The notes below the pieces were generated by a model that ran no database searches, was not told where the DNA came from, and was given only the letters and a program-made list of their open reading frames with translations. 64,000 nucleotides of DNA, from positions 1 to 64,000 of the IMG/VR virus record IMGVR_UViG_3300044959_000200; one strand, 5' to 3'. The DNA is from an uncultured virus (IMG/VR IMGVR_UViG_3300044959_000200). Its lineage: Duplodnaviria > Heunggongvirae > Uroviricota > Caudoviricetes. This document shows, piece by piece, positions 1,261 to 63,626 of the stretch (the first letter of the stretch is position 1; the number at the start of each line of letters is the position of its first letter). Made by a program: the position numbers and the translations under genes.

Positions 1261-1522
1261 GGTCTCAAACGCCGACGAGCTTGCCGTTGCACAGCGCGCA
1301 CAGCGCGCGCAACGTTCGCAACGTGCGCAACGTGCGCAACGCATACCTGTAAGGTCGCAAACGCCGACGGGCTTGCCGTTGCGCAGCGCGCTCAACGCGC
1401 GCCATTCCCCATTGAGAGCACGACAAAGAGTAAGAAGGGAGTCTCAAACGCCGACGGGCTTTACGCCGTACGACGTGCGCAGCGTGCGTCAAGGTCTCAA
1501 ACGCCGACGGGCTTGACGTTGC
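1261..1522 (+). repeat. Left array: 4 copies of about 30 bp GGTCTCAAACGCCGACGGGCTTG(C/A)CGTTGC
   Basis: Copies start at about 1261, 1353, 1440 and 1493, separated by GCGC-rich linkers. Confidence 0.9.
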
Positions 1523-1570
1523 GCAAAGCGCGCACTTTGCGCGCGTTGTAGGCTAAACAGAGAGTGATGT

Positions 1571-1733
1571 CCACAATGTCAGTTAGTGTGTGTTGTGTAC
1601 TAAGCAGGGAGGACTAACCACAATGTCAGTTAGTGTATGTTGTGTACTAAACAGGGAGCGCTAACCACAATGTCAATTAGTGTATGTTGTGTACTAAACA
1701 GGGAGCGCTAACCACAATGTCAGTTAGTGTATG
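1571..1733 (+). repeat. 47-bp tandem repeat, 3.5 copies
   Basis: CCACAATGTCAGTTAGTGTATGTTGTGTACTAAACAGGGAGCGCTAA units start at 1571, 1618, 1665 and 1712 (partial). Confidence 0.95.
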
Positions 1734-2023
1734 ATATTGTCTACTTTGTTCTAATTGTAATCTTATGTCTTGACAAAACAGATATAACCTCCTATTCACA
1801 CACTGTAACTTATCTTTCTTACCATATCGTACAATTTCTACATATGTGCATAAACAATACCCTAACACACATTATCCGTACATTTCACACTGTGTAGGAC
1901 AATAACTTATTGTAATCTAAATCGATTACATTACGCACATCGTACTACACAGACATCGCTGCTTTATGGCGCACAACTGCACAAAAATTCCAGCAAATTG
2001 GCACAGATTGACACATTTTTTCT

Positions 2024-2431
2024 TTATAATTCGAAAGTGGTTATTTGCCACTAATCGAAAATAAAAATAGACCAGATGTGTATGTGCGTGCGCGTACGCA
2101 TGCGCGTACGCGTGCGCGCGCGCGAGCGCGAGCGCCCCCCCAAAGTCATGGCGGAATACGCCTAACATGTTGAAATCACACGGAAATTTGGCAGGAATAT
2201 TTTTTGCAATCGCGTTCAATCTCTCCCTCTCTCTTTTCCCCACCAAAAACTATATATACGTCACTCGCGAGAAATGTAGGTAAATGTATGACAAACACAT
2301 ACATGCATACTCATGCGGGCGCGTGCACACACCCGTCGCGCACGCGCGTGCGCGCACGCGCACACCCGCATGTGTATGCCTGACCTATTTTTATTTTCGA
2401 TTAGTCGAAAATAACCACTTTCGATTTATAA
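2024..2431. repeat. 47-bp inverted repeat pair (2024-2070 / 2385-2431) enclosing alternating purine-pyrimidine tracts
   Basis: 44/47 identity between the left arm and the reverse complement of the right arm. Confidence 0.95.
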
Positions 2432-2455
2432 TGAACGGCGCACGAGGTGCTCACG

Positions 2456-3021: not shown

Positions 3022-3410
3022 CCTCTTGACTTTTACACTGTTTTGTGATTGGCCCGCGCCACTAAACAAAATCCTCTTGACTTTTACGCCGTTTTGTGTC
3101 TAGCGCGCGTCGCTTAGCAAAGCCCAGCGGCGTTTGAGCGCCCTTCCTCGCATTCGCGCGCGTCGCTTAGCAAAGCCCAGCGGCGTTTGAGCGCCCCTCC
3201 TTGTGTGCGCACGCTGCTTAGCCAAGCCCAGCGGCGTTTGAGCGGCCTTTTCGTGTGCGCGTTGCTTAGCAAAGCCCCGCGGCGTTTGAGCGCCTTATGA
3301 GCGCCTTATGAGCGTTGCTTAGCAAAGCCCCGCGGCGTTTGAGCGCCTTATGAGCGCCTTATGAGCGCCTTATGAGCGCCTTATGAGCGCGCTACTTAGC
3401 AAAACCTCGC
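3022..3410 (-). repeat. Right array: 5 copies (+1 degenerate) of GCTTAGCAAAGCCC(A/C)GCGGCGTTTGAGCGCC, two CCTCTTGACTTTTAC units and 11-bp TGAGCGCCTTA micro-repeats
   Basis: Copies at 3112, 3165, 3216, 3264, 3317 (about 50 bp period); CCTCTTGACTTTTAC at 3022 and 3073. Confidence 0.9.
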
Positions 3411-3495: not shown

Positions 3496-3921
3496 ATGTT
3501 TCATTATCGAACAAAACATGCGGGTATTTCTGTGGACCTTGCAAGCAGACTTCGGCCGTCCTTGACCAAGCGCGCATTTCTTAGCGGTGTTCTGCGCCGT
3601 TTTGGAGATCTTGCTCACAAAAATCCTGCGCGTGCGCTTACGTACACGCACGCAATTGATCAAGGTCTACGTGGTGCGCTTTATGGAGGTTTGATTGGCG
3701 GTGCGGGCGGTATGTTGCTCGCGCACCCTGGAGAGGAAGAAAATATGGCGCTTCGCGGCGCGCTTCTTGGCGCTCTTAGCGGTGGAGTGTACGGCGGGTT
3801 TACTGGGCGACAGGATGCTAAAAAGCTCCTTTCTACACGCGAGGGAATCAATGCCTTGGCTGGGCGCCTCTCGGCTCTGCACTCAGCGGGTAGACCTCTC
3901 TCGTATGCCTTTACGTCGTAA
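3496..3921 (+). CDS. Glycine-zipper protein, possible virion/membrane protein
   Basis: Two GxxxG-rich segments (GALYGGLIGGAGG; GALLGALSGGVYGG); promoter upstream, terminator downstream. Confidence 0.65.
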   Translation: MFHYRTKHAGISVDLASRLRPSLTKRAFLSGVLRRFGDLAHKNPARALTYTHAIDQGLRGALYGGLIGGAGGMLLAHPGEEENMALRGALLGALSGGVYGGFTGRQDAKKLLSTREGINALAGRLSALHSAGRPLSYAFTS

Positions 3922-3941
3922 TTGTTTTTTTCTTACGGCCA

Positions 3942-5599: not shown

Positions 5600-6010
5600 C
5601 TATTTGACGATGAAGATGATCTCGGCGTTACCCCAATTATTTGTTTTGAGTTGGATGTTCTTCAGTTGTTTGTGTTTGTTCATGAAAACATGAACGATTG
5701 TGTCTTTGCCGAGCGGTGATTTCTCACTGAGCTCGATAAGTTTGTTGATGACATCCTGTACTTTGAGGGCTGGTGCATGTTGCCAGTAAATTTGTTCTAG
5801 TGCATTTTTGTCGTTGTTTTTCAGTGCTTCTATCTCGCCTGGATAAAATTCAGTTAGCGGTTCCTTTACGGCGTTTTCGCCGAAGTTGTGTTTGATGCGT
5901 AGTTTTGTTGGTGAAAGTCGAGTGCATGCGTGCCACATTGCTTCGCCATCTTCGAGGCTGTGTGGGTGGTTGCAGTATTCTGGGATGTAAAAAGACGTTT
6001 TGGTGTTCAT
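5600..6010 (-). CDS. Hypothetical protein
   Basis: AAGGAGG RBS before ATG at 6010 (shorter than the ORF-track call). Confidence 0.75.
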   Translation of the reverse strand: MNTKTSFYIPEYCNHPHSLEDGEAMWHACTRLSPTKLRIKHNFGENAVKEPLTEFYPGEIEALKNNDKNALEQIYWQHAPALKVQDVINKLIELSEKSPLGKDTIVHVFMNKHKQLKNIQLKTNNWGNAEIIFIVK

Positions 6011-6722: not shown

Positions 6723-7046
6723 ATGCGATATACGGGAGAGTCTATTGAGCGTGCAATCCGACTTGCACTTATTGAACATCGGTGCGCACCTTCGGCGTCA
6801 ACTGCAACAAAGCTAGCGAAGCTGCGCGCGTTGCGCGCTCTTTATGAGACGAGCGTGTATGCGAACATTGCGCTCCCTGGGTTAGGTACAGCACAACGCT
6901 CGTTACGTGAGGCAACTGAGTGTTATCGAATACTGCGAAAGCTGCCGCCGGATGTACAGAGATCGGAGAGACGTGCGCTCAAGCGTGCGATCGCAGAGGC
7001 ACGTAAAGTGCCTATGGAGTTGCCTGAAGTAGATTTTACGGTGTAA
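6723..7046 (+). CDS. Hypothetical basic helical protein
   Basis: 107 aa ORF; TAGAAT 6 nt before the ATG. Confidence 0.65.
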   Translation: MRYTGESIERAIRLALIEHRCAPSASTATKLAKLRALRALYETSVYANIALPGLGTAQRSLREATECYRILRKLPPDVQRSERRALKRAIAEARKVPMELPEVDFTV

Positions 7047-7536
7047 ATGAATTGCCTTCATTCGTTTCGTTAAACGCCGCTGCGCGGCGCATGATTGCGG
7101 TCTGAAGGCGTTGTATAGTGCGCAGGTAATTTGCGGCTCGAATGCGCACAAGGGTGTTAGTAGTTTGGCGGCGTGGATTACATAGGCCCACGCGAAAACG
7201 CATGATTGCCCCATCGATGTTGCCGCACACTGCAAGGCTACGGTGCAGTGCGCCGGCTGCATGTAGATGAGTGCCGGCAGTATGTCGGCGATTACGAGAG
7301 ATCGGTGCACCCCAATTGCCCCCCTCTCCCTTATCGCAACCTAAGTGCGTTTCGGCAAAGGCGACAGCAGCTAGTACCTCGCGAGGTACGTCTGGATAGC
7401 GAGCAAAGGCCTCATCGAGCTGCGCTTCAATATGTGCACGGTTTTGTTCTATGCACGCTCGATTATTGCCAGACATATATGGAAAAAGATCGAGGATGAT
7501 GGAGATAATCAGAGCTGAAGTCAAAGTTGAAGACAT
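7036..7536 (-). CDS. Lytic transglycosylase/lysozyme-like protein with hydrophobic N-terminus
   Basis: VPREVLAAVAFAETHLG resembles the SLT catalytic-Glu helix; start uncertain. Confidence 0.5.
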   Translation of the reverse strand: MSSTLTSALIISIILDLFPYMSGNNRACIEQNRAHIEAQLDEAFARYPDVPREVLAAVAFAETHLGCDKGEGGNWGAPISRNRRHTAGTHLHAAGALHRSLAVCGNIDGAIMRFRVGLCNPRRQTTNTLVRIRAANYLRTIQRLQTAIMRRAAAFNETNEGNSFTP

Positions 7537-10252: not shown

Positions 10253-10283
10253 GTGTGTTCTTTACGGCGTACATAGTTGTTGG

Positions 10284-11917: not shown

Positions 11918-12271
11918 TTACCTATCTAGGTAAAGTCTTTTTTGTTTACGGCGTGAAGGCCAGTGTTCAGGATGTTGTACTAACCATGCTTCATCATAAG
12001 GAGGTAGTCGTCCCCGTAGTTGGAACAACTTTACGTATGAGTCGGAGTCAAGTTCAAGTACTTTTGCAAGCTTGTCTAGGCGTTTGGGACTGATTGCGCG
12101 TTTCCCACGTTCCAGATCACTCAGATACGGTACTGATACTCCTGCACTTTTAGCGACTTCGCTGAGTACTTTTTCTCGTTGTTGTCGTGCTTCTCGTAAC
12201 AGTTTACCAAGCGCCACGCGGCGCATTTTCGCGTCGTCGGGGAGCCCTTCCCGTTCGGCGCGTTTGTTCAT
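11918..12271 (-). CDS. XRE-family helix-turn-helix regulator
   Basis: LGKLLREAR...LSEVAKSAGVSVPYLSDLERGKR. Confidence 0.9.
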   Translation of the reverse strand: MNKRAEREGLPDDAKMRRVALGKLLREARQQREKVLSEVAKSAGVSVPYLSDLERGKRAISPKRLDKLAKVLELDSDSYVKLFQLRGRLPPYDEAWLVQHPEHWPSRRKQKRLYLDR

Positions 12272-15212: not shown

Positions 15213-16709
15213 TTACTTTATTACTGCGTCGTTTTCGAACGCTTTGAGTTGCTCTAATGCGATGCTCTTTGGAACTACGCCGTCTGCACGCGGAATTTGT
15301 ACGAGATATAGTTCTCGTTGTGCGCGTGTTACGGCTACATAATATAGATTTTCACCTTCAGTAGAGTCCACACGGAATGTGGATTCAAACATCCACACGC
15401 GTTCGAATTCGAGGCCTTTTGCTTTGTGGACTGTCATGAAGGGGATAATCCCTTTGTCAGCGACGCTTTCGTCGTCATCAAATAGTTCTGCAACTTTACG
15501 ACGTAGTGTTTCGACGCTATTAGTGTCTTCGCTGATAGCCCGTAGCGCTTCTAAATTGTCTTTTAGTTCTTCAGCTTTGTCGTCTTTGCCCGCTGCGATC
15601 AAGCGGTCGGATTCTTCGGCTACGTATTCACTTAGCTCTTCGAGAGCGACCCGCACATTGTTAGTGCGTGTGCGTGCTAGTAGTGCATCAAGTTTGGAGT
15701 TAAGATCGCGTCCGATAATGCGGGCGCGGCGCCCTTTTCCTAATAAGAGCATGCAATATTTCGAAAGCGCTGCGTTGGTACGACTGATTACTGCGTCGCC
15801 TTCAGTAACTTTCGTTAGGAATTCTTTTTCAGACACACATGCTACGGTACCTTCAATTGCGTTGGGTGCTGCTTCGAAGTCGTTCACGATGCGCCGTGCG
15901 AGGTTGACGACTGCACGCGGGCATCGGTACGTTACTGATAGTGGCAGCACGGTAGCGTTGAGGTCCGCTTGAAATTTTGCCAGCGCGTTTGCGTCTGCGC
16001 CTCGGAAAGCATAGATCGCTTGACGATCATCGCCGACAGCAAATATCCGTCCGGTCGCAGGCTTTACGGCGTTCATAACGATACGATATTGGCATGCGTT
16101 GAGATCTTGCGCTTCGTCGACGATAACGATGTCGTATGAGCCAGTAGTGAGATTGAATCGTGCGGGCAGATAGACTTGTTCGTCGAAGCTGATCGTCAGT
16201 GATGGACGTTCTGAAAAAGCTAGCGTTGCTTCTGTCCACTTGCGATACAAGTCTTCTTGTTTTGGATCTACTGGGCGCAGGTCATAGTAATACATAGTTT
16301 GCGTGATGCTTTCGGCATCTACTGCAAGATTTGCCATGCACATTGTGACGAGTTTTATTACGTCACTGCGTGCTTCTTTGTATTCATCCGGGATCAATCG
16401 TCGGACGAAGTCGCGTATCCTGTAGCGATCAACTTTTAGTTTTTGCCCCCGAAAACGTATCATTGCGCCAAAGCCAATTTGATTCAGACCTTTGACTTGT
16501 ACGTGGCGCAAGTTTTGTAACTTTTGTGATAGTTCGTCACGTATTTTGTTATTAAATGCGCAGACGAGGATTCGCGAACGTGACAAACGTCGGCACAGTT
16601 CTTTGATTGTAGTTGTTTTACCGCATCCGGCGCGTGCGATGACTACGAGGTGACCGCGCTCTTTTTCGCCGAAGCGAAAAATATCTTCTTGGTAACGACT
16701 CCAGACCAT
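15213..16709 (-). CDS. UvrD/Rep-like SF1 DNA helicase
   Basis: ARAGCGKTT, VDEAQD, VGDDRQAIYAFRGA, TYRCP, TVHKAKGLEF, YVAVTRA. Confidence 0.95.
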   Translation of the reverse strand: MVWSRYQEDIFRFGEKERGHLVVIARAGCGKTTTIKELCRRLSRSRILVCAFNNKIRDELSQKLQNLRHVQVKGLNQIGFGAMIRFRGQKLKVDRYRIRDFVRRLIPDEYKEARSDVIKLVTMCMANLAVDAESITQTMYYYDLRPVDPKQEDLYRKWTEATLAFSERPSLTISFDEQVYLPARFNLTTGSYDIVIVDEAQDLNACQYRIVMNAVKPATGRIFAVGDDRQAIYAFRGADANALAKFQADLNATVLPLSVTYRCPRAVVNLARRIVNDFEAAPNAIEGTVACVSEKEFLTKVTEGDAVISRTNAALSKYCMLLLGKGRRARIIGRDLNSKLDALLARTRTNNVRVALEELSEYVAEESDRLIAAGKDDKAEELKDNLEALRAISEDTNSVETLRRKVAELFDDDESVADKGIIPFMTVHKAKGLEFERVWMFESTFRVDSTEGENLYYVAVTRAQRELYLVQIPRADGVVPKSIALEQLKAFENDAVIK

Positions 16710-17847: not shown

Positions 17848-18550
17848 GAGCGTTACTTCCCTTGTGTTGATCAACCATACAACAGATCTTATTAGTGAGT
17901 ACGATCTTGCGCGTTTTGTCAATGCTTTGGATGTACAATTTCGGCACGACGTTACCCCTGTTTGGGGGCGCTACTTGCTGCCGTGGGTTGCGCGCGACAC
18001 TCAGAACCTAGATCCTAAGGTGTGGCAGCTTCATCTTTGGAGAAGTCCGCGTGAAGCACCTGAAGCTGGATTCTTAGGGCGCCACTCGACTCAAGGTGCT
18101 GATTATGTACCGATCGGACATGTTTTCATTGAAAACTGTCTGATCAACAAGGTGCCTTGGACGCATGTCGCCTCACACGAGGCCATTGAAATGGCTGGCA
18201 ACGAATGGCTCAACTTGGAGGTAGCACGCGTTCTTGATGACAGCACTGTGGAGCTGTGGCCTAGGGAGCTGTGTGACGCTGTTCAGGGAGTGGGTTACGC
18301 CGTAAACGGCGTTGAGCTTTCTGACTTTGTATACCCTGAGTTTTTCATTGAAAAAGCAGACGGTCCGTATGATCACTGCCGCGTGCTTGATAAGCCTTTT
18401 TCGATACATAAGACTGGGTACGCTTCTATCCTATTTATCAAAAATGGCTACGCACGGCGGCGTGATTATTATGGTGCTGCCTGCCCTGAGTGGTGTAGGG
18501 CTATGCACTCTCTAACACGTAAACACGCACATTGGAGAGCTGTCAAATGA
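17846..18550 (+). CDS. Zincin-like protein with HExxE motif
   Basis: LGRH...SHEAIEM...ELCDAV...SDFVYP. Confidence 0.6.
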   Translation: MSVTSLVLINHTTDLISEYDLARFVNALDVQFRHDVTPVWGRYLLPWVARDTQNLDPKVWQLHLWRSPREAPEAGFLGRHSTQGADYVPIGHVFIENCLINKVPWTHVASHEAIEMAGNEWLNLEVARVLDDSTVELWPRELCDAVQGVGYAVNGVELSDFVYPEFFIEKADGPYDHCRVLDKPFSIHKTGYASILFIKNGYARRRDYYGAACPEWCRAMHSLTRKHAHWRAVK

Positions 18551-21509: not shown

Positions 21510-21875
21510 TTACGACGTACGAAGCTCTCCTGGTATTTCAGGAGCAGGTTCGGCGTAGGCGAGGTATTCGCACCATCCGCGTTCGCGGATTACGGCGGGT
21601 ACAACGGTGTATGTGCCAGGGAAAAAGATGTGTTGCGTGCGCCGTACAAGATCAGTTCGATCGACGCCATCATCGCGGTGGCGTAGCCGCAGTATTAGTG
21701 CATCAGTACCATTAGGCTGTATAGGACGGAGTACAGCTTGCGCTTCAAGCCCCGAAGATAACGGCGTAAATGTGTCAGCTGGAAAAAATTCTTCGCCTTC
21801 TTCAGCTGCACGGCGCGACATTTTCTGAATTTCTTGTGCGCGCAATAGTAGATAAAGGTATTCTGAATGTTCCAT
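21510..21875 (-). CDS. Hypothetical protein
   Basis: 121 aa, TAATG-coupled. Confidence 0.7.
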   Translation of the reverse strand: MEHSEYLYLLLRAQEIQKMSRRAAEEGEEFFPADTFTPLSSGLEAQAVLRPIQPNGTDALILRLRHRDDGVDRTDLVRRTQHIFFPGTYTVVPAVIRERGWCEYLAYAEPAPEIPGELRTS

Positions 21876-23528: not shown

Positions 23529-23579
23529 ACGTAATTCTACGCAAGGTACGGCGTCAATATTTGAGGAACTTTACGCCGT

Positions 23580-25748: not shown

Positions 25749-26513
25749 ATGGCTGAAGAGATCCGTCGCCCTGGTGAATACGGCGTAAAGACCTCTACGA
25801 CAGTTGCTGCACCCGCAACGCCTGCAACGCCATCTTCAACAACTTCATCTGCGACAACGTCGCCGGCAACTATGCCTGGTGTACCTCCTGCACCACCTTT
25901 GCCACCGTCTGCACCGGTGTTTGATCCACGCAATCCTGCTGATCAACTTGCACAAGAAATACTCAATGCGACGCCACCAGCGGCGACACCTGAAGAGCGC
26001 CTCAAGCAGATTGAAGAAGCGCGAGCCAAGGCTAAGGAGTATTTAAGTCTGACACCTGCTGAGCGGTGGTTGCGCAATATCAAGAACGCAGGCCTGACCG
26101 AAGCTGAGGCTAACGAAATTCTCGATAAGGTGTTGGAACAGGGTTATTGGGAAAAAGAGTACGCGCTTTACAACGGGCGACTTAAGATCACACTTCGATC
26201 GCGTGATGCTGCTGCCAATCAACGTGTTGCTAATGCGCTTGATGAAGTACGTTCATTCGATCAACGTGTGCTTGATCAAGCGCGGCTGCGTGTGCAGCTT
26301 GCGTGTTCGCTTGTTCGTTTTCGGGATAAAATTCTCCCAACTGCTGCGCCTGATGAGGATCCGGCGAAACATGAAGCCGCTTTTCGCGCACGATTGACAT
26401 TTTGTGATCAGTACATTGCGGGGCCAATTGTTGAGGCTGTTTATCGTGCGTTGATCGACTTCGATGCTAAAACCTACGCTGCGCTGAGTGAGGGTGCTCC
26501 AGCGGGTTTTTGA
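25749..26513 (+). CDS. Tail assembly chaperone (gpG-like)
   Basis: Two ORFs upstream of the tape measure; ends in slippery G GGT TTT TGA. Confidence 0.75.
   Translation: MAEEIRRPGEYGVKTSTTVAAPATPATPSSTTSSATTSPATMPGVPPAPPLPPSAPVFDPRNPADQLAQEILNATPPAATPEERLKQIEEARAKAKEYLSLTPAERWLRNIKNAGLTEAEANEILDKVLEQGYWEKEYALYNGRLKITLRSRDAAANQRVANALDEVRSFDQRVLDQARLRVQLACSLVRFRDKILPTAAPDEDPAKHEAAFRARLTFCDQYIAGPIVEAVYRALIDFDAKTYAALSEGAPAGF
26504..26510 (+). other. Predicted -1 ribosomal frameshift site GGGTTTT
   Basis: XXXYYYZ heptamer immediately before the stop; next ORF is in the -1 frame. Confidence 0.75.
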
Positions 26514-38029: not shown

Positions 38030-39277
38030 ATGCCCACACCTGCTGATGTACTTAGCGGCGCTCTTACGCGCCTTGCCAATGATCGTCGTCGCCGCGTTAC
38101 GCAGTATGCTAACCTAACGCCTCGTCCGGGCTCTGGAACAATTCCTCAGCGCCTATTGAGTGACATAGGTTTTTTAGAGGCGCTTCAGTTTAGCTATATC
38201 AACGCTAACCCAGCGCATGTTACGCCCCCAGACGATGACAATCCACGGGATATACGTCAAATTGTACTGTGTGCATATGGGCTTCAGCTCGACGCTGCTC
38301 GTTTCTCTGCTCGCAACACAGTTATACGCACGGTGAGGGGACCAGGAATTAGTGGTCTTGCGCCGTTTGCTGCGTTGCCTGATGTACTTGTCTCGGCAGA
38401 ACTAACGGAGGAAACTTACTCAGTACAAAAGAATGACGTTGTTCGTCGCAATATGACACAGCGTCGTAATGGTCCAGCGTACCATTTCTTGATTGATCGC
38501 AACGGGGGGATTGCTGTCGGACCTGCGTTGGACTATCGTACGAGTGTCGTGCCTGCGCGCAGTGAACACGGCATTTTTATTGGACTTGAAGGCGCGCTTG
38601 GCATTGCACGTACAGATTTTGAAGCTGGGCGTACTGACGCATTTTTCGAGTTGCCTTACACGAGTCTTCAGTTGCTTACGTTGGCAATTCTCTTGGCGAA
38701 ACTCTTTACGGCGTATTCAACTATACCACGCACTATCAGTACCCCGACTGATGGTACGACACCAGCTTTAGTCTATACCGCGTCGACTCTAGCTGGTGAA
38801 CTGACTCATCGTAATTTTTCAAATGGTGCATGGAAAAACACTGAACACAATGGTTTCGATTATAGCGCGACTGACGATAGTGCGCTTTCAGTTTCTATTA
38901 TGAACGAAGGGAACTTTGATCTTGCAACTGAGATCTTTCGTCCTGCGCAGGCTCCACGTGCTATTGCTGCACGTGACGTAGCACGTACTGCGATCGGAAC
39001 TGTTGACACAGCTGGTGCGCAGTCACTTTTTCTTGGTGCGTATATTTCGTTGGCTGCGCCTGAGCGTGCTAACGATATAGAGACTCAGACACGCAGGCAG
39101 ATTTTTATCGAGCGACTACGTTCGACTCATACTGAAGCTGACGACACTGGGGCTTTAGCTGCGGAAGTTGCTGAGGGCGGAGTGTCACTCACACCCATCC
39201 ATCCCACAGTTACGAATATTGAGCCTCACACATACAATTACACAACAGGTTTGTGGGGTGACGGAGAGGTGTATTGA
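38030..39277 (+). CDS. Amidase_2/PGRP-like domain protein (tail-associated)
   Basis: AYHFLIDRNG, IFIGLEG, YTSLQLLTL. Confidence 0.6.
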   Translation: MPTPADVLSGALTRLANDRRRRVTQYANLTPRPGSGTIPQRLLSDIGFLEALQFSYINANPAHVTPPDDDNPRDIRQIVLCAYGLQLDAARFSARNTVIRTVRGPGISGLAPFAALPDVLVSAELTEETYSVQKNDVVRRNMTQRRNGPAYHFLIDRNGGIAVGPALDYRTSVVPARSEHGIFIGLEGALGIARTDFEAGRTDAFFELPYTSLQLLTLAILLAKLFTAYSTIPRTISTPTDGTTPALVYTASTLAGELTHRNFSNGAWKNTEHNGFDYSATDDSALSVSIMNEGNFDLATEIFRPAQAPRAIAARDVARTAIGTVDTAGAQSLFLGAYISLAAPERANDIETQTRRQIFIERLRSTHTEADDTGALAAEVAEGGVSLTPIHPTVTNIEPHTYNYTTGLWGDGEVY

Positions 39278-41795: not shown

Positions 41796-44700
41796 ATGCC
41801 GCTTATTCCTGATCCTTCTCGTAATTTTATCAATGCACTTTCGGGATTTTGGACAGCGTTTTTCCGTGATGCTGATGAGCTGACTGCATATTATGAAGGC
41901 GTACAGCTCAATCTTGGGCAAATTTACTTAGAAATGCTTCAGACTATCCTCGGCACAAGTCTTAAAGACATGCCGCTGTTTAGCCGATATTACTATAAGT
42001 ACTTAGAATTGCGACGGGATCGTCTGTTTTACGTCGAGGGGGCATCGCCGTCTGAAGATACTTATGAATTTACACCACCAGATCTTACGCTGGCTGACGT
42101 TTCTAGCATTCTAAATCGTGTTGTAGCACCCACTGCGACGCTAGTTCGAACCCGCGATTATTATGTGCGTGACGGCGCAATTAGATTCAGACGCGATTTA
42201 TTCAATGTTGATGGTAATGGCACAACAGAACCGTTATTTCCAGTTCGTACATTGTCGGTTGTTGAGCCTGCACAGTTTACTGATCCAGTTGGGCGTAATT
42301 GGGCGGCAGCTGGTGTAAAAATTGGTGATTGGTTTTGTCTACGTGTACTTGGTGGTGGTTCACCAATTCTTGTGCGTATTGTTGGCGTTGATGGTTCTAA
42401 ATTACTGCTAGGAGATACTGCGCCAGAATTTGAGCAAAATTTTGCGCGACGTAACGTACGCATTAGTGTTGTACGTACACCTTTTGATCGTGAGAAAATA
42501 GGTGTTTTGTTACCTGCCAACCCACGACTTACGGTTCGCGCATCAAATAATCTTACTGACGCCGCAATCAATCCTGGCACTATGGAGGTAGTTTTCACCA
42601 CTGAACCGTATTTCAAGGGCTTTTGGACGCCGGCAACATCATACACAGCTGGTGACCTTGTACACAACGGAGTTTGGCTACTTTACCGTGCAAAGGTCGA
42701 TCACGTCTCGGGCCCTGTTTTTGATCCTACGATGTGGGATCAAATCACGAATTGTTATATCTATGTAGACGACCCTGAATCTTTTGAGAATAGCGGACTA
42801 TTTTACTGTTTTGGAGGTACGAACTTCGGCACAGTAACTCTATGGCGTCCGCGTAATTTTATTGCGACGCTGAGCAACCGTGCGCGCATAACGTTCGTTT
42901 TTTATTCGGGTACGTTTACTGCGAATATGCAGCCTGAATTGCTGCTACCGCAAACGTTTATTGATGTTGGTAGCCTTTCGATTGTCGCACGTCGTGCCAC
43001 GCCTGTTGTAATAATGAATTCTGATGGTTCGACGACTACGTACCCAGTTGGTGAAAACGTCATTGAAGGCGTTGATTATGTCGTCGATTATGAGGCTGGC
43101 AAAATTATTGTGCGCTCAGCGTGGAGTGATGCATTGCCGGCGCGCGTTAATTACACTTGGATGCGTGCTGTTGCTGTCTACGATTACGTCGATCGCGGTG
43201 AATGGACCGCTTTTACGGCGTATAACGTCGGTGATATCGTAACTCATGGAGGTACAGTTTATATCTGTTTTGCACCGGACCCAGGTAGCCCGGTATTCAG
43301 CATAGCCTTTTTTCGACCTTATATCCCTCCATTTGAATTCAATGTTACAGCTAGCGTGCCAGTTATGGCACTATGGGGTGCGAATACATTAGTAGACGAA
43401 GAAGCGCTTTATAATAATTTTGGGTACTTACTCGGTTATAAAAAACCGACGAGCGAACAGTATCGTACATTTTTGCGTGGCGTCGCGCAGCTTTTTTTGC
43501 TTGGTCCGACGTTAGAACGATTTGAGAGCGCGATGAATGTCATGGCGGGTTTCCCCGTTGTGCGCGACGACGATGAAGTTTTGCGCGGTTATGACAACGG
43601 TATCGTAGCATCAGGTGTAGACGGACAGTTGATTGATTCTGCTGAGGGGCGCGACGGTGTACTAAATGCGGCGCTTGAGCAGTTTTATTCACCTACGGCA
43701 GGATTTTTTCCGTCGGACATTGGTGCAGTAATTCGTGTGCAAAATGGCACATCAGTTGATGAATATACTGTTACTGCTGTACTTTCACCGACAACGGTCG
43801 TTGTAGCGCCAACACCGCCAGATGCAGTTAACGTTACTTGGTCGTATACTCACGTTGCGCTCACTACGCGTTTTCGCGTGACAGCGGGATCGTATCTTTT
43901 TGGGCAAGAGGACGTTAACGGCTCGATTATTGTGCAAGGTTCCGGCTTTGCGCGCAACAATGGCGTCTTTCGCATTCTTGCTGTCGAGAACAACACAACC
44001 GTCATTTTAGAGACGCCATATGGTTTCACTGATCAGTCAGGTCTTACATGGGCTCTTTCACGAACTAATCAACAGCGTGTTATAACGTCACGTGCTACGT
44101 ATAGCTTTCCATTGTTAGTTGCGATGCGGCCGGATGTAGTTGATCCAGCTAGCGTCAATGTACTTAAGTTTCGTGCATTTGAAGCGTTAACTGACGCTTT
44201 TCGAGTTGTTGATTACTTGCGTGACCCAACGTGGTGGCACAACGTCGTTATTCCTAGCGATGTTCTCAAGCTTGATGTTGATGTATCAAGTCGACGCAAA
44301 GTATCGCCAACGCTGATTGAACATATCTATGGAGCACTAGACACACCTGTTTATGGTGATTTTGGCCTTGCTTACGACGTTGACGACGAAGGTCAGCCTG
44401 GCGAAGATCGCGCCGGTAAAGCATGGTGGTACGGCGCGAACAGTATTGTGCTTTCATTTGACCCTGGTGTACCAACTGCGCGGACGCGAGACATCGGTCA
44501 GCATATTATCGTTTCGACGCCTGGTTTTAAGGGATATTTCCCTATTGAAGCAGTACAACCTGATGGCGTCACTCTTACACTTGGTCGTTTTCCCCCGCCC
44601 GAAGCGGAGGGTACAATCCCTCCGGTGCAGATCGATGTAAAGCTGCCACCACTGCTTTATCGTCGTACTGTCGCATTTGTTATGATGGACCGCTTTTTGA

Positions 44701-45362: not shown

Positions 45363-45868
45363 ACACGTACATCCAGCATCTTCATACCCCAACACTCAAA
45401 CCTGAATTCAAACTCCGAGGAGATCTCCAAATTGAGACATGGCGACCTGGAGATAAACGGCCTTTACGGCGTTATGCTCTTCGAAATCAAATCACATATA
45501 ACGGTTTCAACTCACCACTCTATCTTTGGTCGCAAGATTCGGGTAATCCGTCTGACTGGCGCATAGTCAAATTAGTGCCTGGTACTAACGGAACACCGCC
45601 GACGATCGGAGATCTTGCGCTCGGTAGCCCACTTGGTCCGGCTGATGAAATTCACCTTACTGCGGCGAATCGTACTGTCGTACCTGCGTCTGGGGAACTC
45701 ATTATTACAGGTACGCTTACTACGCTCCAAGCTAACGGACATTCTCTGCGAGAGGTGGGGTTGTTTTTAGGTAACGGCCAGCTCTTCGCTCGACAAGTCT
45801 ATCCTGTAATCGCTAAGACTGGCGCCATTACTGTCACGTATACGTGGCGTATCGCTGTAACTGCATAA
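45359..45868 (+). CDS. Tail fibre attachment/collar-like protein
   Basis: ANGHSLREVGLF...LFAR...I.KT pattern. Confidence 0.65.
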   Translation: MNTYIQHLHTPTLKPEFKLRGDLQIETWRPGDKRPLRRYALRNQITYNGFNSPLYLWSQDSGNPSDWRIVKLVPGTNGTPPTIGDLALGSPLGPADEIHLTAANRTVVPASGELIITGTLTTLQANGHSLREVGLFLGNGQLFARQVYPVIAKTGAITVTYTWRIAVTA

Positions 45869-51141: not shown

Positions 51142-51714
51142 TTAGATGTTGGTAGTGGATTTACGCCGTGTCCGTTGCATACGCTGCTTTGGAGACGACG
51201 TAACTAATGCATGTACAACTTCAGCTTGCGCTCGTGTTTGACAGCGAATGCGCTGATGAACGGCGCGAGCGATTTGTGCTAAGACTACTGCGTCAGCCTC
51301 GTTATCATCTGTGAGTGCCGTACCCCATTGCCGATTTACGGCGTTTAGAACATCATCTTTGTTAGCGGCGCCGTAACCGGAGGCGAAAAGCTTAAGCTGA
51401 GACGGCGCGACGATAAGAGGTTCCACGGCGGATAAATGATAGATTGTAAAGCGAACGACCCCACTTACCTCGCCGAGGGCAAATTCACGATGCACGCTGC
51501 CAAAGCTTGGACCTTCGATCGCAGCATGGAGAACGCGCCCGTTGCGCGAGGTGAGCGTGTCGGCGATAAAGCGATAGATCGCACCTAAGCGTTCGGCACC
51601 TCGGAGTTTTTCGCCTACCTTAGTGATAGCAGTGTACACTACAGTACCATCAGGTGCTACAAGCGCAAGGCCTGGTCGCTGAAGCGATTGATCGACGCCA
51701 AGGTAGAGTTGCAT
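51142..51714 (-). CDS. ruvC: RuvC-like Holliday junction resolvase
   Basis: LGVDQS, AIEG, P.QLK...GYG.ANK, DNEADA. Confidence 0.88.
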   Translation of the reverse strand: MQLYLGVDQSLQRPGLALVAPDGTVVYTAITKVGEKLRGAERLGAIYRFIADTLTSRNGRVLHAAIEGPSFGSVHREFALGEVSGVVRFTIYHLSAVEPLIVAPSQLKLFASGYGAANKDDVLNAVNRQWGTALTDDNEADAVVLAQIARAVHQRIRCQTRAQAEVVHALVTSSPKQRMQRTRRKSTTNI

Positions 51715-53019: not shown

Positions 53020-54023
53020 GCACTATTCCACAAGTTATACAACAACGGCGTCCGATCACTCTAGTTGACGGTACACAAAAATTTGAAATCACAACGATTG
53101 TTGTTGATAAAGGAGATTTGCCTTTCAAAGATTTATTTGTCTTATCGATCTCCGACGCCAATGATCCAAAAGATGATGTGCTCGTGCGTGTTGCAACTCC
53201 ATATGACATACGGCAGACTGATCCGAATTCACCAAAATATGTAAAAGTCAAAGCTAATGATTTAATTGTGATTCCACCCGATACGTTCGCGCGAGTTGCT
53301 AATATCGATGAACTTACGGGCTTATTTCGCGACCGCACCACTGCTGTGCGTAACGGTCGCACTGAATATCTTTCGTCAGTTATGACAGTCGTTTACGATA
53401 CGCTTACAACGGCTGACGCAGCGTACAAGCAAATTCTGGCGCGGCTTTCAGCGCTAGTTGAAGACTGGCGCGCAGTCTTTACGCCGTTTGCCACTAATCC
53501 GACGCAATCTTACGACTTGCCTGTACCTGGTGTTTCTGTTGAAGATGAGCGCAAAAGAGCATACATCGCTGCGCGCAACGCACGGATTAAAGCTGAAGCA
53601 GACCGTGATGCAGCACAAGCCGCTGCAAACGCGTGTGAATCTGCTTGTGCAACAGACAAAGCAATTTACGATTTTTTAGTTGCTGACGTAGCGTTTCTCG
53701 AAGCTGCGCGCACAATCGTTGTTAATCTTCAGGATACGAGCATTCCGCCTGGTACACCACTTACGACTAATGTAAAAGATTTTGTACTCCAACAAGGAGC
53801 ATTTGCTGGCGACAATCGTTCATACCAAGCACTGCTTACTGCCAAAAAAGCCGCGCGCGATGAGTATGCAGCAAAAATCGCAGCATGCAGCGCTAACTGC
53901 GAACGCCTTGCAGCGGCTGTACTTGAAGCACAACGCATCGTCGATAACGCACGCGCTGCTGAGCGTGATGCGCTTTCTCGTGTTTATGAGGTCTGTCCCA
54001 CATTCGATCCTAACAGCGTATGA
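53016..54023 (+). CDS. Putative structural protein with Cys-containing coiled coil
   Basis: CESAC, CSANC and VCP in Ala-rich heptads. Confidence 0.6.
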   Translation: MSTIPQVIQQRRPITLVDGTQKFEITTIVVDKGDLPFKDLFVLSISDANDPKDDVLVRVATPYDIRQTDPNSPKYVKVKANDLIVIPPDTFARVANIDELTGLFRDRTTAVRNGRTEYLSSVMTVVYDTLTTADAAYKQILARLSALVEDWRAVFTPFATNPTQSYDLPVPGVSVEDERKRAYIAARNARIKAEADRDAAQAAANACESACATDKAIYDFLVADVAFLEAARTIVVNLQDTSIPPGTPLTTNVKDFVLQQGAFAGDNRSYQALLTAKKAARDEYAAKIAACSANCERLAAAVLEAQRIVDNARAAERDALSRVYEVCPTFDPNSV

Positions 54024-58431: not shown

Positions 58432-58492
58432 AAAAAAACGCCCCGTTTACTCCGTAAACCTTCTAATTTTACGAAGCGTAACTACGGGGCGT
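58432..58492. terminator. Probable terminator between convergent genes
   Basis: ACGCCCCGT / ACGGGGCGT stem with adjacent A run. Confidence 0.55.
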
Positions 58493-60107: not shown

Positions 60108-60176
60108 GAGACTCCACGTACTTATACTGTGGAGTATCTGTTTTTTTATTTACTCATATAGATGAGTCTACATTTT

Positions 60177-63100
60177 TCATAAGTCGCTTGTATCGCTCGT
60201 GTACAAAGATGCTCTTTTTGACTTAGTTACCGGCGAGAGTTCGTGTTCATCTGGATCACGCAAATCTTCGAAGATTTCTTCTTCGGTGTAACCGTCTAGC
60301 TCAGCGATTGGAAGCGGTGGCGGAAGTTGAGCAAGATATTTATCTGCGCTCATCAATTCGCCATAGTTTGGGCCAAGCTCAACATCCCATCGATATGGCA
60401 CGGGAAGCCATGGACACTCACGTGCCACACGTTCGGTACCGTACTTTTTGAAAATTTCTGGCACTTGATGCGCGTACTTTTTCGGTACTTGAAAACCAAT
60501 TGAGTCATGTACGGTGAGTAGAATCCTCCCCTTGAGATCACGTTCAATTACGTCAGCAACCCAACACAGCACTGTCAAAACAATATCGCTGTTAGTCGCT
60601 TGTATTTTGAAGTTGACAGCTTGCCTTTCCGCTTTGGCGCGAAGAGCACTAGGAGCATACTTACCGAGCAAAAAACGGCGACGCCGTCCATGGTAAGTTT
60701 CTACAATGCCGAAAGTACGCATCTCCCAGATTGTCTGGTTGATGAACGTCTCTAATGTTGGAAACTTAGTAAATAGTAATTTCTTGATTTGCTGCGCCAA
60801 ATTGAGGTTGATGCCAGCAATTTCAGCGATTTTCTTCACACCGGCACCGTAAAGCAGCCCAAAGACAAGACGTTTGATATTGTCACGTAAAGCTTTGAGC
60901 CGCCTACCATACGCTTTATCTTCCAGCAAATCATCTTTGCCTTTGAGGAAATCGTCGTACGACCACGCATGTTCATCGTCAATGGCAGCGTTCGCCAATG
61001 CGATGCGTCGTTCTTCTCCGTGTAATCCGGCGGCAACGAGATCAGGATTAAGGCATTGTGATGCGAAAAAGCAGTGCGGATCCATGCCTTCAAGCAGGGC
61101 GTTGATCAATTCAGTATCTTTGGCATAACCCGCAAAAATTGAAATTTCAGCGCCTTTAGCGTCAGCATTACCAAAACAATAACTGTCATCGTCAGGAATG
61201 AAGAGCTTTTTACATTTCACACCTTCAAAGACAGGTTTGCCATCTGAGCCGAGCACAAGATTTCCGCGCATATCGCGCAGAGCTCCAATTTGGCCCTTGA
61301 TAATGTTTTGATTGTTGAAGCCGATGCCTTCAACGCCCGAGGACGATGAGAGGCGTCCAGTGGACGTACCTGTAATGTTGTAACCAGGATGAATGTGTCC
61401 ATCCCCGAACATATTGGACAAGATGCCGATGTTTTTGAAGAAGCTGTTTTTGGCTTTATCAGCTTTCTTCAGTGTCATCAGCAAATTCGCAAGCGGGCAC
61501 TTGTACCGTGTGACGAGACTCTTGAGTACAGCTTCGCTAGTTTGCATCTGCCCCTTTACGGTGTAATGCTCGGGGCGATACATGATTCGTCCGCCGACAT
61601 AGCGAACAGTATCAGGGTTTTCACGCGCAATTTGTTCAGCGAGCTCTGGATCTGGATGCTTGTAACCTACGCCTCCATAGAAAAGGTAGTGAGCTAATTT
61701 CTTCGGGCTATTCAATGGAAACTTCTCACCGCACAATTCGAAAATTTTTTCAGTAGTTGCAGTAATTGTGTTATCCAGCGCGCGGTTGCCCCATTCTAAG
61801 TAATCTTGGTCAATGTTGATGCCTAGATATTCGATCTTCGCAAGCTGTGTTTGTCGTGGAAGGTAGTCCTCTTTTACCAATCGGTGTAACGGCGCAGGAT
61901 GATTGCACAGAACTTCAACGCGATATTTTGACAGCTCACTATTTGGCGGCCCTGAAACAATTTCTTCATGGACTTGACGACGCCAGCGATCAAACTTGTC
62001 ATCTTCATCATACATACGTGCACTTTGTTTGATGGCAAGGCGTCGTGTAGCGTCAGCGTCAACAGCGGCGTAGAAGTAAAGCTCATCAAGGGAAATATTT
62101 TCGAAACCTCCTTTATGCTTACGCTCCTTAGCGGCTTCGCGCTCAGCCTTACCTGTAAATTCGCCGTTAGTTTTGGCGGCGAGCAACAAATTTAGATCGT
62201 CTAATTGCTGCTGAATGTGAGCTTGGTCAACTTTTCCTAAGGGTAGTTGTTTGAGCTTTTCTATGGCTTTCTTAATTGTTTCAGTACGAAAGCGGGCATT
62301 CTTAACGTGTCCAGCAGCAATGGCACGTTCAAGTGCTGCCGCAACCGTAGCTGGTAGTTTAACTGCACGTTTCGTCGAAACTTGCACTTCCGTAAAACGC
62401 GCAACGTCAGTTTTTACTAGTTCATCATGCAAGCGGTCTTCATAACCAGCGAGAAAGGGCAAGAATTGTTTAGTCAAATACTTGAGGTTGTATTGCCCTT
62501 TTTTGTCTTCTTCGAGCACATGTTCAGCACAAAATACATCCCACGCAATTTTTCCTACCTCACCAAGAGGCCAACCCAAACGCCAGAAAACTTTGAAATC
62601 GTACTTGGCATTGAACCAAATACACGGTTTACCACTTCGCAATAGCCAAACAATGTGTTCGTATGCTGCGGATGGATCATACGGCGTATCTTTGTGCCAA
62701 AGAGGCACTGTAGCCGCTTTACCATCATCCCATGCGAATGAAACGGCGATCAGTTTAGTGCCAGTCCAATGTGGATGTAGTGTATTAGTTTCGGTATCGA
62801 ACGAAATTTTCCAATCAAGAGGATCGATGCCAGGTCGCGTATAATCAAAAACATGCCGTACGAGAGCTTTCACCTCGGCAATGGTTTTTGGATAGATGTA
62901 ATCTTTTTCAATTTCTGCTCGCGTAAGTACACGAATTTCGGCGTGTGCCGCAATTCGCATAGCCCGCTCAACGTCGGCTAATACAGAACTATATTTGCCG
63001 ACCGCAGCGGCGAGGGACTTAAGCGACTGTGTAAAGACAACTGTGAGATACGCATCACCAAATTTCACATTTTCGAAAACGCGCCCAATAGCTTCTTTTT

Positions 63101-63626
63101 CAGACCGCACTGGGATACCAAGCGCATGAAGCGATGGTACACCACACGCGATAACTGTAAGCGAACGCTCTGGCGCGTTAGCCTGACGCATAGCCGCTAA
63201 CCGAGTAACTTCAGTTTTGAGCGGTGTGCGACATGCTGTGATGATTGCTTTACTAGGTGCGTCGACAGCACACTTTACGGCGTACACATATCGAAAGTTC
63301 AGCACAGCAAATTCTGGATGCCGGCGCTGTACTTCTTTGATTGCATTCTTCAGAACGCGTGCACCGTCCTCACGGAACGGTTGATGAAACAGCGAATTGT
63401 CTGGAATGGTTTGACCGCCGACAATTGACAGACGAGGTGCAATCGGCGCGTCACCGATAACGAGGATGTCCGCGTAATCTGGGCCATCCGAGTAGGGAAA
63501 GTAGTGTGTACCCTTAAAGGCAGGGCACGACGTACACCCCGGACCTGCTTTGTAAGCAAATTCGGGGCGCGCGCAAATATCACAGTGAAACGGAGGGGGC
63601 GCTTCCGATAGCGAGATTGACGCCAT
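60177..63626 (-). CDS. polA: Family A DNA polymerase with N-terminal UDG-like domain and 3'-5' exonuclease
   Basis: FDTET, FNAKYD, YAAVDA (exo I-III); TGRLSS; DAKGAE; KRLVFGLLYG; VHDS. Confidence 0.95.
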   Translation of the reverse strand: MASISLSEAPPPFHCDICARPEFAYKAGPGCTSCPAFKGTHYFPYSDGPDYADILVIGDAPIAPRLSIVGGQTIPDNSLFHQPFREDGARVLKNAIKEVQRRHPEFAVLNFRYVYAVKCAVDAPSKAIITACRTPLKTEVTRLAAMRQANAPERSLTVIACGVPSLHALGIPVRSEKEAIGRVFENVKFGDAYLTVVFTQSLKSLAAAVGKYSSVLADVERAMRIAAHAEIRVLTRAEIEKDYIYPKTIAEVKALVRHVFDYTRPGIDPLDWKISFDTETNTLHPHWTGTKLIAVSFAWDDGKAATVPLWHKDTPYDPSAAYEHIVWLLRSGKPCIWFNAKYDFKVFWRLGWPLGEVGKIAWDVFCAEHVLEEDKKGQYNLKYLTKQFLPFLAGYEDRLHDELVKTDVARFTEVQVSTKRAVKLPATVAAALERAIAAGHVKNARFRTETIKKAIEKLKQLPLGKVDQAHIQQQLDDLNLLLAAKTNGEFTGKAEREAAKERKHKGGFENISLDELYFYAAVDADATRRLAIKQSARMYDEDDKFDRWRRQVHEEIVSGPPNSELSKYRVEVLCNHPAPLHRLVKEDYLPRQTQLAKIEYLGINIDQDYLEWGNRALDNTITATTEKIFELCGEKFPLNSPKKLAHYLFYGGVGYKHPDPELAEQIARENPDTVRYVGGRIMYRPEHYTVKGQMQTSEAVLKSLVTRYKCPLANLLMTLKKADKAKNSFFKNIGILSNMFGDGHIHPGYNITGTSTGRLSSSSGVEGIGFNNQNIIKGQIGALRDMRGNLVLGSDGKPVFEGVKCKKLFIPDDDSYCFGNADAKGAEISIFAGYAKDTELINALLEGMDPHCFFASQCLNPDLVAAGLHGEERRIALANAAIDDEHAWSYDDFLKGKDDLLEDKAYGRRLKALRDNIKRLVFGLLYGAGVKKIAEIAGINLNLAQQIKKLLFTKFPTLETFINQTIWEMRTFGIVETYHGRRRRFLLGKYAPSALRAKAERQAVNFKIQATNSDIVLTVLCWVADVIERDLKGRILLTVHDSIGFQVPKKYAHQVPEIFKKYGTERVARECPWLPVPYRWDVELGPNYGELMSADKYLAQLPPPLPIAELDGYTEEEIFEDLRDPDEHELSPVTKSKRASLYTSDTSDL

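Follow-up and report, generated by a model that had tools for sequence, protein, structure and literature searches.

We describe here a short DNA word, TTTACGSCGT (S being G or C), that is dispersed throughout the genome of an uncultured tailed phage, together with a phage-encoded protein that is a candidate for reading it. The DNA analyzed, referred to as the window, covers the first 64 kb of a virus contig of 78,550 bp (IMG/VR record IMGVR_UViG_3300044959_000200) with a GC content of 48.8% and a completeness of 46% as estimated by CheckV. Comparison with relatives shows that selection keeps sites of this kind about every 2 to 3 kb along the whole phage chromosome, regardless of genes and orientation. 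Based on sequence comparisons, our current hypothesis, which we consider probable, is that these are dispersed parS/OB-like loading sites for the phage's own ParB/Noc/KorB-family protein, which appears to lack a partner.

The word was first recognized by eye in an earlier note on this DNA, and all 20 copies listed there proved to be exact matches in both coordinate and strand. These 20 copies (16 on the plus strand and 4 on the minus strand) compare with 0.53 expected from 100 dinucleotide-preserving shuffles of the window (standard deviation 0.77, maximum 3), none of which got to 20 copies. The full contig contains 23 copies, 18 plus and 5 minus. When its synonymous codons were shuffled with the proteins and codon usage kept, a mean of 4.76 and a maximum of 9 copies were obtained in 100 shuffles, the mean including three intergenic copies that lie beyond the reach of the shuffle. 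Because it survives the synonymous-codon shuffle, the enrichment is a DNA-level signal. Ten copies in the contig are sense, 10 are antisense, and 3 are intergenic; all three reading frames are occupied, and the encoded peptides differ (FTP/FTA, LRR, YGV, AVK, RRK, and others). The all-frame spread and the codon shuffle rule out a peptide or codon-usage origin, and neither weakness that the note had anticipated, namely loss of the enrichment under a dinucleotide or codon shuffle or its reduction to one frame or a peptide such as FTP or LRR, is present in the data. As the note had also held, the copies lie mostly in genes (20 of 23 inside open reading frames (ORFs), in either orientation), and their random relation to the gene strand rules out a promoter or terminator role. 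The form with a central A or T, TTTACGWCGT, is far more weakly enriched, with 5 copies in the contig versus 0.92 expected. Variants of this form are present at 3910, 13090, and 21509 as noted, and a fourth is at 15495 rather than 15485.

Relatives were gathered from IMG/VR through their terminase. Among them are G004, which is complete at 172,374 bp and has terminal repeats, and G003, a 123-kb strain nearly identical to the phage described here. TTTACGSCGT is present in 61 copies in G004, 43 in G001, 31 in G003, 27 in G002, 17 in G005, and 11 in G006, as compared to 0 to 1 copies in relatives for a control pattern, the word read backwards. Every close relative is enriched, despite a GC content of 62 to 66% in all but G003, and the synonymous-codon shuffle was again exceeded (mean 15.1 versus 61 observed, and mean 4.7 versus 43 observed). 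The word is therefore a strong signature for spotting contigs of this phage clade. No copy was found in the whole contigs of a sister clade, G007 to G009 (400 kb in total). In one of these, G009, the top k-mers are explained by long tandem-repeat arrays with 102-, 111-, and 297-bp units, which are GGN/CCN-rich and lie within a large gene at 52.7 to 56.5 kb.

Individual copies are conserved in position. Reciprocal-best orthologues were aligned, and the 10-mers at word copies were compared with random 10-mers drawn from the same alignments. Between G003 and G001, 11 of 15 orthologous 10-mers are identical, as compared to 3.1% of random 10-mers (P = 3e-14); between G001 and G004, 6 of 18 are identical versus 4.5% (P = 1e-4). 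The G003-G004 comparison gave 2 of 14 identical and five others that are one base off, the changed base being the central S in three. The earlier note had proposed synonymous-site conservation in relatives as a check, and it was found. At silent third positions, where the amino acid is unchanged, 87 to 91% are identical within sites versus 42% elsewhere for G003-G001 (P of about 1e-9 to 1e-14), with a weaker contrast of 75 to 76% versus 60% for G001-G004 (P = 0.05-0.10). Coding sequence can evidently carry a dense second layer of selection.

The same pattern is visible site by site in the window. Copies identical at the orthologous place in G001 are those at 31653..31662 (+; 10 of 10 positions), 34524..34533 (−; within a 1374-aa ORF), 38705..38714 (+), 45463..45472 (+), and 53478..53487 (+). 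Of two copies antisense within a RuvC-like gene, the one at 51335..51344 (+) is identical in both G001 and G004, and the one at 51160..51169 (+) is not conserved in G001. The copy at 63274..63283 (+), antisense within the PolA gene, is identical in G001 and has its S flipped in G004, and that at 25780..25789 (−) likewise has an orthologous copy in G004 with a flipped central S. At 26830..26839 (+), in ORF 26510-26935, the copy is not conserved in G001, and at 43212..43221 (+) the window reads TTTTACGGCGTATA and the near-identical strain G003 reads TTTTGCGGCGT, a one-base gain or loss. The remaining copies are CTTTACGCCGT at 1460..1469 (+), in the third copy of the left array of a repeat locus described below; TTTTACGCCGT at 3083..3092 (+), intergenic at the edge of the right array of that locus; CTTTACGGCGT at 5865..5874 (+), antisense within ORF 5600-6193; CTTTACGGCGTACA at 10261..10270 (+), intergenic; TTTACGGCGTGAA at 11945..11954 (+), at the 3' end of the gene for an XRE-family helix-turn-helix (HTH) protein; and those at 16063..16072 (+; antisense within a UvrD-like helicase gene), 18297..18306 (−), 21761..21770 (−; sense within ORF 21510-21875), and 23570..23579 (+; intergenic, adjoining an XPD-like helicase gene).

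Alignment of the sites indicates a somewhat broader form. The flanks are unconserved except for a C at −1 (81% of 135 sites in three genomes) and an A/T preference 3' of the word. Counting TTTAC-NNNN-T in G004 gave GGCG 39 times, GCCG 22 times, CGCG 13 times, and GCGG 11 times, each with fewer than 0.6 expected. Since all of these inner letters are allowed, the site is better written TTTAC-SSS-GT, and its best general form is a pseudo-palindrome, C-TTTAC-SSS-GT-a.., with TTTAC/GTAAA arms and a 3-bp G/C spacer. A variant of this class, TTTACGGGGT, is located at 31383..31392 (+) in the window. The second arm is selected, though seldom perfect: of the 94 sites in G004, 49 carry a single mismatch in the AAA arm and 2 are perfect 13-mers, and a perfect 13-mer with a CG-S-CG core is found at none of the 135 sites, all of which belong to the group of phages referred to below as group A. 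Avoidance of perfect palindromes is not general: they are rare in group A and the rule in two sister groups, B and C. Two exact copies in the window are one mismatch from the 13-mer palindrome, namely those at 10261 and 18297, where the plus strand reads GTTACGCCGTAAA. Near-cognate 13-mers with one mismatch are present at 7035..7047 (TTTACGGTGTAAA) and at 58446..58458 (TTTACTCCGTAAA, placed near 58446 by the earlier note), the latter in the longest gap between exact sites, and a near-cognate 13-mer with a central T is at 3910..3922. Further 13-mers, with two mismatches, start at 11323, 12920, 17301, 30291, 31008, 33009, 33156, 55629, and 61555. Long gaps between exact copies are occupied by such near-cognates, for example those at 55629, 58446, and 61555.

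The sites are evenly spaced. For TTTACSSSGT, G001 contains 56 sites with a mean spacing of 2.1 kb, a largest gap of 4.2 kb, and a coefficient of variation (CV) of 0.40 versus 0.97, and G004 contains 94 sites with a CV of 0.63; the evenness of each genome was matched in 0 of 5000 simulations. The contig from which the window is taken has a spacing CV of 0.64 to 0.67 (P = 0.02), and for the 10-mer the CV is 0.57 to 0.81 versus about 0.96 under the null (P = 0.0006 to 0.057). This evenness is a property of the combined set, and sites of a single orientation are only as even as randomly labelled subsets. Orientation itself behaves as a random label: the number of switches is what chance predicts, runs tests are not significant, orientation is independent of the gene strand, and the plus:minus counts of relatives are 22:21, 23:38, and 20:11. 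Taken together, these observations indicate that the sites act as double-strand, orientation-blind elements. The earlier note had read the 16:4 ratio in the window as following the chromosome rather than the transcribed strand, analogous to Chi or KOPS. The count was correct, as was the lack of relation to the gene strand; the polarity is not supported, and the bias is mostly a matter of base composition. Strand-specific Markov models of the window, the plus strand of which is T-rich, predict a plus share of 0.66 to 0.71 and give a probability of about 0.12 to 0.24 for 16 or more of 20. Orientation is weakly associated with the sign of the local GC skew (135 sites, Fisher P = 0.012), and a flip in strand bias between the skew-positive and skew-negative parts of G003 (12:4 versus 5:7, P = 0.12) was not established.

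The candidate reader is encoded 6.5 kb past the window, on the minus strand at contig positions 70,500-71,558. It is a 352-aa protein assigned to the ParB/Noc/KorB family by Pfam, profile, and model comparisons. Pfam ParB_N (PF02195) is matched at 3e-6 with 27.6 bits versus a cut-off of 26.3. A profile of 22 homologues, when compared with solved structures, has Noc as its best match (2e-18), followed by Spo0J/ParB and then KorB (1e-6), and the alignments with these three cover their DNA-binding domains. The phage protein itself aligns to Spo0J/ParB/Noc, and one homologue has Pfam's KorB domain. An AlphaFold2 model, with a predicted local distance difference test (pLDDT) value of 79.5, is matched by ParB, Noc, and KorB structures (6t1f_D, 8qa9_B, and 6y93_B) with template modeling (TM) scores of 0.64 to 0.73 to the target. 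GRRR at residue 110 is kept in 21 of 22 homologues and ENLKR at residue 145, an ENxxR sequence, in 22 of 22. Both signatures of the nucleotide pocket of the ParB-CTPase family, GxRR and ENxxR, are present, and binding of cytidine triphosphate (CTP) is predicted. In the model, the N domain is followed by a putative ParB-type HTH. A homodimer was also modeled, with a value of 0.49 versus 0.00 for the best of three controls and an interface at residues 283-345; the runs share at least 57% of contacts, and the partner pLDDT is at least 72. In a calibration set, 20 of 30 proteins with solved structures made of two copies of one chain reached the mark used, as did 1 of 23 with single-chain structures. 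The models therefore point to C-terminal dimerization, although the pass may stem from likeness to solved ParB dimers.

Nothing resembling a partition partner was detected with the searches used. The ParA-binding motif, which PMC12704722 gives as (L/F/I)G(K/R)G(L/F/I), is present in 0 of 22 ParB homologues. A search for ParA with PF13614, the only ParA model used, gave no match in the complete G004, in G003, or in G001, and the control for this search was positive in 14 of 14 genomes. Residues 1-30 of the phage ParB are Lys-rich and predicted to be disordered (pLDDT of about 32), with no predicted helix. Ahead of the ParB_N domain, a strongly conserved N-terminal peptide, PLGFEYEFLPLP, was observed at ParB residues 32-43 (L030:6500-7558). 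It sits where other ParBs have the ParA-binding motif, and may therefore be a docking peptide for some partner. Two PD-(D/E)XK nuclease genes adjoin parB, and a copy of the word lies 376 to 391 bp upstream of it, in gene orientation, in G000, G001, G004, and six metagenome loci; given that copies are generally conserved in position, this upstream copy is weak evidence.

Sites and ParB also co-vary. We gathered 78 loci through the fused RNA polymerase gene that these phages carry, with parB located 6 to 7 kb upstream of it, and compared those that span 15 kb or more. Arrays with the core A-CGSCG-T are present in 11 of 11 loci with a ParB of this type (at least 149 bits to the profile), in 0 of 24 loci with only weak ParB-like matches (20-112 bits), and in 0 of 19 loci that have the full upstream flank and no ParB match. 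No other strongly enriched 9- or 10-mer was found in these 19 loci. ParB was not found in the whole 158 kb of G009 with positive controls, and its syntenic parB slot, from a 470-aa protein to a PD-(D/E)XK nuclease, contains small ORFs and a sigma factor instead.

Loci with the array fall into three sister groups that share the core A-CGSCG-T and differ in the arms, which are TTTA- in group A, to which the window belongs, GTA- in group B, and TTCA- in group C. The group B site is the perfect palindrome GTACGSCGTAC, with 38 sites in a complete 187-kb genome and 24 and 9 in others, as compared to 0 in G004 and 1 in one group C genome. Group C uses the perfect palindrome TTCACGSCGTGAA, with 40, 14, and 22 strand hits, nearly all of them palindromic pairs, as compared to 2 each in G004 and G013. 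Relative to the phage ParB, the group A proteins score 515 bits (52% identity), group C 266-315 bits (34%), and group B 150-174 bits (31%), and the regions of the HTH recognition helix are group-specific. The XRE protein, one of two readers that the earlier note had suggested, is 42% identical to ours within group A, 51% to group B, and 30% to group C. By these measures, the site variants track ParB similarity and not XRE similarity, which makes ParB a likelier reader than the XRE or ribbon-helix-helix product named in the note. Hybrid sites with one arm of each type are present in L081 and L087 (e.g., TTTCA-CGCCG-TAAAA and GTA-CGCCG-TAAAG) and in the window at 11945, where an A-type and a C-type arm are combined; these are possibly intermediates in a change of specificity. 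This hybrid at the 3' end of the XRE gene aligns with a group B site, GTACGCCGTAC, in G013, which suggests that a site was converted in place. A record named Aphanizomenon phage Yong-DA (L058, ON073792.1) carries genes for ParA, ParB, and a replication protein and many others for polysaccharide synthesis; no phage structural genes are annotated in it, and it looks like a ParAB plasmid.

Several observations weigh against ParB as the reader. HTH_ParB (PF17762) is matched at 3e-4 with 21.2 bits, slightly below the cut-off of 22.6. The group A site is lopsided, with one perfect arm and one degenerate arm, which is unusual for a symmetric ParB dimer. As far as these comparisons go, the link between ParB and the sites is one of co-occurrence and co-variation in a single clade in which other clade-specific proteins co-vary too. 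XRE orthologues are found in all three array groups, and 24 of 47 core genes, XRE included, have no match in the array-less sister genome G009, so that profiling against G009 had to be discarded as a pointer to ParB alone. In most array-less loci the absence of ParB was judged within 10 kb of the RNA polymerase gene, and only in G009 was it judged over a whole sequence, of 158 kb. Lastly, no dispersed word is found in MT835476, a distant phage record that carries a ParB gene, and such a gene alone therefore does not predict an array.

A rival explanation is another DNA-binding protein, either the 117-aa XRE-family protein (11918..12271, −) or an unannotated core protein, of which the sites would be operators under genome-wide regulation. 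XRE is the sole classical HTH regulator found in the window, its orthologues are present in groups A, B, and C with no match in G009, its gene carries a site at the 3' end in two groups, and 5-bp arms with a 3-bp spacer would suit a dimer of the Cro/CI type. We nevertheless consider this explanation unlikely, as XRE identity is out of step with the motif variants while ParB is in step, and as only 3 of 23 copies are intergenic with an orientation independent of the gene strand. Precedents for 60 to 100 evenly spaced intragenic sites exist in the ParB family and are not known among small XRE repressors. Still less probable in our estimation is that the word marks an enzymatic DNA transaction, such as a site-specific nick or base modification, rather than a binding coat. 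T5-like, phiKMV-like, and tf phages have localized nicks at short conserved dispersed words, two PD-(D/E)XK nucleases lie beside parB, and this strain encodes an N6/N4 methyltransferase. Lacking an orthologue in G001 and G004, the methyltransferase cannot read a family-wide word and is ruled out as the reader, and no Tet/JBP dioxygenase (PF12851) was found in G000, G003, G001, or G004. Even, orientation-blind spacing and the perfect palindromes of groups B and C point to a symmetric binder rather than a strand-specific nick, and base modification would leave a 40-fold enrichment of its targets without any explanation.

Strand-polar signals of replication, repair, or translocation, resembling Chi, KOPS, or primase sites, are largely refuted and very improbable. 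Their appeal lies in the 16:4 ratio and the weak skew association, together with an Okazaki-fragment size that is near the site spacing of about 2 kb. The ratio is mostly explained by composition, the relatives are mixed with random runs and switches, a single orientation loses the even spacing, and the perfect palindromes of groups B and C have no polarity. Words of host type can be frequent in phages of competent hosts, and the word could in principle be an uptake sequence, a host Chi, a host regulator site, or a by-product of codons or peptides; we give this almost no credence. The same word is present at 49% and at 62 to 69% GC and is conserved copy by copy, a sister clade of similar GC has none of it in 400 kb, and the copies occupy all frames, encode varied peptides, and stay enriched over both kinds of shuffle.

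We therefore favor ParB as the probable reader, and the proposal of the earlier note that these are genome-wide DNA sites of the parS or Noc-binding-site (NBS) kind for a phage-encoded protein is supported. ParB would bind the sites as a dimer joined at its C termini, close around the DNA into a CTP-dependent clamp, and then slide, by analogy with KorB and Noc, and sites about every 2 kb would keep the whole genome coated. The purpose of such a coat is speculative and may be the organization or condensation of replicating phage DNA, KorB-like genome-wide transcriptional control, or self-marking of the phage DNA. If ParB does read the sites, their strict even spacing becomes a measurable prediction of the clamp sliding distance, and a centromere protein would have been turned into a genome-wide coat in a phage that shows no partition ATPase. 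A more far-reaching idea, which we put forward tentatively and regard as possible but doubtful, is that this RNA polymerase-bearing clade of large uncultured phages uses a partner-less ParB-CTP clamp as virus-specific chromatin, that the coat sets its DNA apart from that of the host, and that reader and site specificities (TTTA, GTA, and TTCA) co-evolve and are mutually exclusive. Were this the case, exclusive specificities could stop one phage from reading the genome of a related phage that infects the same cell. Three site variants occur naturally, each with its own ParB variant (31 to 52% identity), and provide a ready system for studying the evolution of ParB DNA specificity.

Proteins assigned in the window by PHROG and Pfam include dCMP deaminase, ThyX, the XRE-type HTH protein, UvrD-like and XPD-like helicases, a sigma-like protein, a class II ribonucleotide reductase, a RuvC-like resolvase, the large terminase, an N6/N4 DNA methyltransferase, and a family A DNA polymerase. 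Past the window, the contig encodes a primase-like protein, the two PD-(D/E)XK nucleases, an SNF2 helicase, the ParB-family protein, and RNA polymerase. The multisubunit RNA polymerase, located from contig position 77.9 kb to the end and at L031:763-5271 and L021:3508-5313, consists of a 1502-aa fusion of beta (Rpb2 domains) with the N-terminal portion of beta' (Rpb1 domains 1-2) and a second, 601-aa protein with Rpb1 domains 4-5. It is common to at least 78 IMG/VR contigs, some of which are up to about 198 kb. A megablast of 10 kb against cultured phages gave no match, the nearest cultured terminases are about 30% identical, and a terminase scan of bacterial genome contigs for a host found no relative. 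Sequencing runs that contain the stretch are labelled as hot springs or microbial mat metagenomes, and two of them may be its source. A large shift in base composition is seen within the clade, in that this phage and G003 have 49% GC and relatives with a mean protein identity of 78% have 62 to 66%. G001 and G004 lack reciprocal-best orthologues of the N6/N4 methyltransferase gene (57515-58423) and a neighboring PcfJ-like gene (58482-60107), and the block (57515-60107) looks like a strain-specific insertion in the terminase-polymerase interval. From 26945 to 48673, the window contains a series of very large plus-strand ORFs (1232, 1374, 689, 1188, and 930 aa) that are conserved in relatives and have no family match save a CBM_5_12 module (41796-45362) and the sigma-like protein (37328-38026).

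Near its left end, the window has a complex repeat locus (1261-3440). It consists of four repeats of about 50 nt (1261-1542), a 47-bp unit in four tandem copies (1545-1733), a 99-nt imperfect inverted repeat (2020-2118/2337-2435), and six 53-nt repeats (3104-3440) that are inverted relative to the left array and that contain an 11-bp unit repeated 4.6 times (3340-3390). Since the GC skew changes from negative to positive here, the locus is likely a replication origin. The word copies at 1460 and 3083 do fall in this locus, as the earlier note had pointed out in linking the motif to the repeats. The link itself does not hold, because Tandem Repeats Finder detected no such arrays in the complete relative G004, which carries 61 copies of the word, and the locus is ruled out as a component of the system. 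Farther on, between converging ORFs, a 21-nt inverted repeat (3942-3985; 95% complementary, 2-nt loop) looks like a terminator.

Comparison with known systems places the array close to plasmid KorB and bacterial Noc. KorB is a ParB-family CTPase whose clamp slides from its operator (OB) and silences promoters at kilobase distances (PMC11790492). The operator is the 13-bp TTTAGCGGCTAAA (PMC11790492, PMC5577506), and it has the same TTTA-NN-S-NN-TAAA plan as the phage TTTACGSCGTAAA. As with the KorB-OB system of RK2 (IncP-1), the phage site is an odd palindrome with a central G/C that is scattered around the replicon. The proteins are also alike in size and layout, KorB being described as 358 aa with an N domain, a DNA-binding domain, and a C-terminal dimer, and the phage model matches KorB (8qa9_B) with a TM score of 0.72. 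RK2 has about a dozen OB sites, mostly near promoters, and its KorB has partners in KorA/TrbA and the ParA homologue IncC. Unlike RK2, the phage carries 23 exact copies on a 78.5-kb fragment, with 60 to 100 per complete relative, and these are mostly intragenic and evenly spaced; the replicon is that of a phage with its own RNA polymerase, and neither ParA (PF13614) nor the ParA-binding motif was found. The inner dinucleotide is CG in the phage as opposed to GC in OB.

Noc is a partner-less ParB paralogue with many dispersed chromosomal sites from which it spreads with CTP (PMC12704722, PMC7333895). The phage protein shares with the Noc-NBS system of Bacillus subtilis the apparent lack of a partner and the many dispersed sites, and Noc is also the best PDB match of its profile. 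Noc has an N-terminal amphipathic helix that tethers DNA to the membrane, unlike the Lys-rich, putatively disordered start of the phage ParB. The NBS palindrome is of even length and lies on a cellular chromosome, unlike the odd-length palindrome on this virus. With chromosomal and plasmid ParB-parS systems, the phage protein has in common the GxRR and ENxxR N domain, the ParB-type HTH, and the modeled C-terminal dimer, and the group C arms are what we take to be the arms of chromosomal parS. Unlike centromeres, which consist of one or a few origin-clustered sites and are accompanied by ParA, the phage sites tile the genome with no PF13614 match found. The specificity of ParB can be changed by few residues (PMC7333895), in keeping with the occurrence of one site variant in each of three ParB subgroups.

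Among phages, Cluster O mycobacteriophages such as Corndog have more than 30 copies of a 17-bp dyad repeat with a 3-bp spacer in a genome of about 70 kb, many of them intragenic (PMC4351075). These repeats are conserved in position among relatives and untied to promoters or the direction of transcription, and in the available text their reader and function are unassigned (PMC4351075). Corndog resembles the phage described here in having a dispersed inverted repeat plus an encoded ParB-domain protein, between which its authors, in that text, drew no link. It differs in that its repeat has 7-bp invariant arms and an A/T spacer, and its ParB-domain protein, gp90, has ParB_N only and no ParB HTH in Pfam. 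That text gives neither spacing statistics nor co-variation for the repeats. Chi and KOPS are asymmetric and oriented with replication. In Cluster A mycobacteriophages, stoperators are likewise asymmetric and follow the direction of transcription (PMC4351075). All of these are, like the phage word, short words over-represented genome-wide, and unlike them the phage word is randomly oriented. Phage ParB-like proteins paired with thymine dioxygenases (5mYOX/Tet-JBP) are described as lacking a DNA-binding domain (PMC13229309); this pairing is ruled out here, since the four genomes searched have no PF12851 match and the phage ParB has an HTH domain. The portions of the literature available to us do not connect genome-wide sites with an orphan ParB of a phage, and in that literature the arrangement appears to have its precedents in a plasmid protein, KorB, and a bacterial cell-division factor, Noc, without a description for phages of this kind. 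If ParB reads the sites, the KorB and Noc paradigms would extend to viruses, and a candidate explanation for the dyad repeats of Cluster O mycobacteriophages would be at hand.

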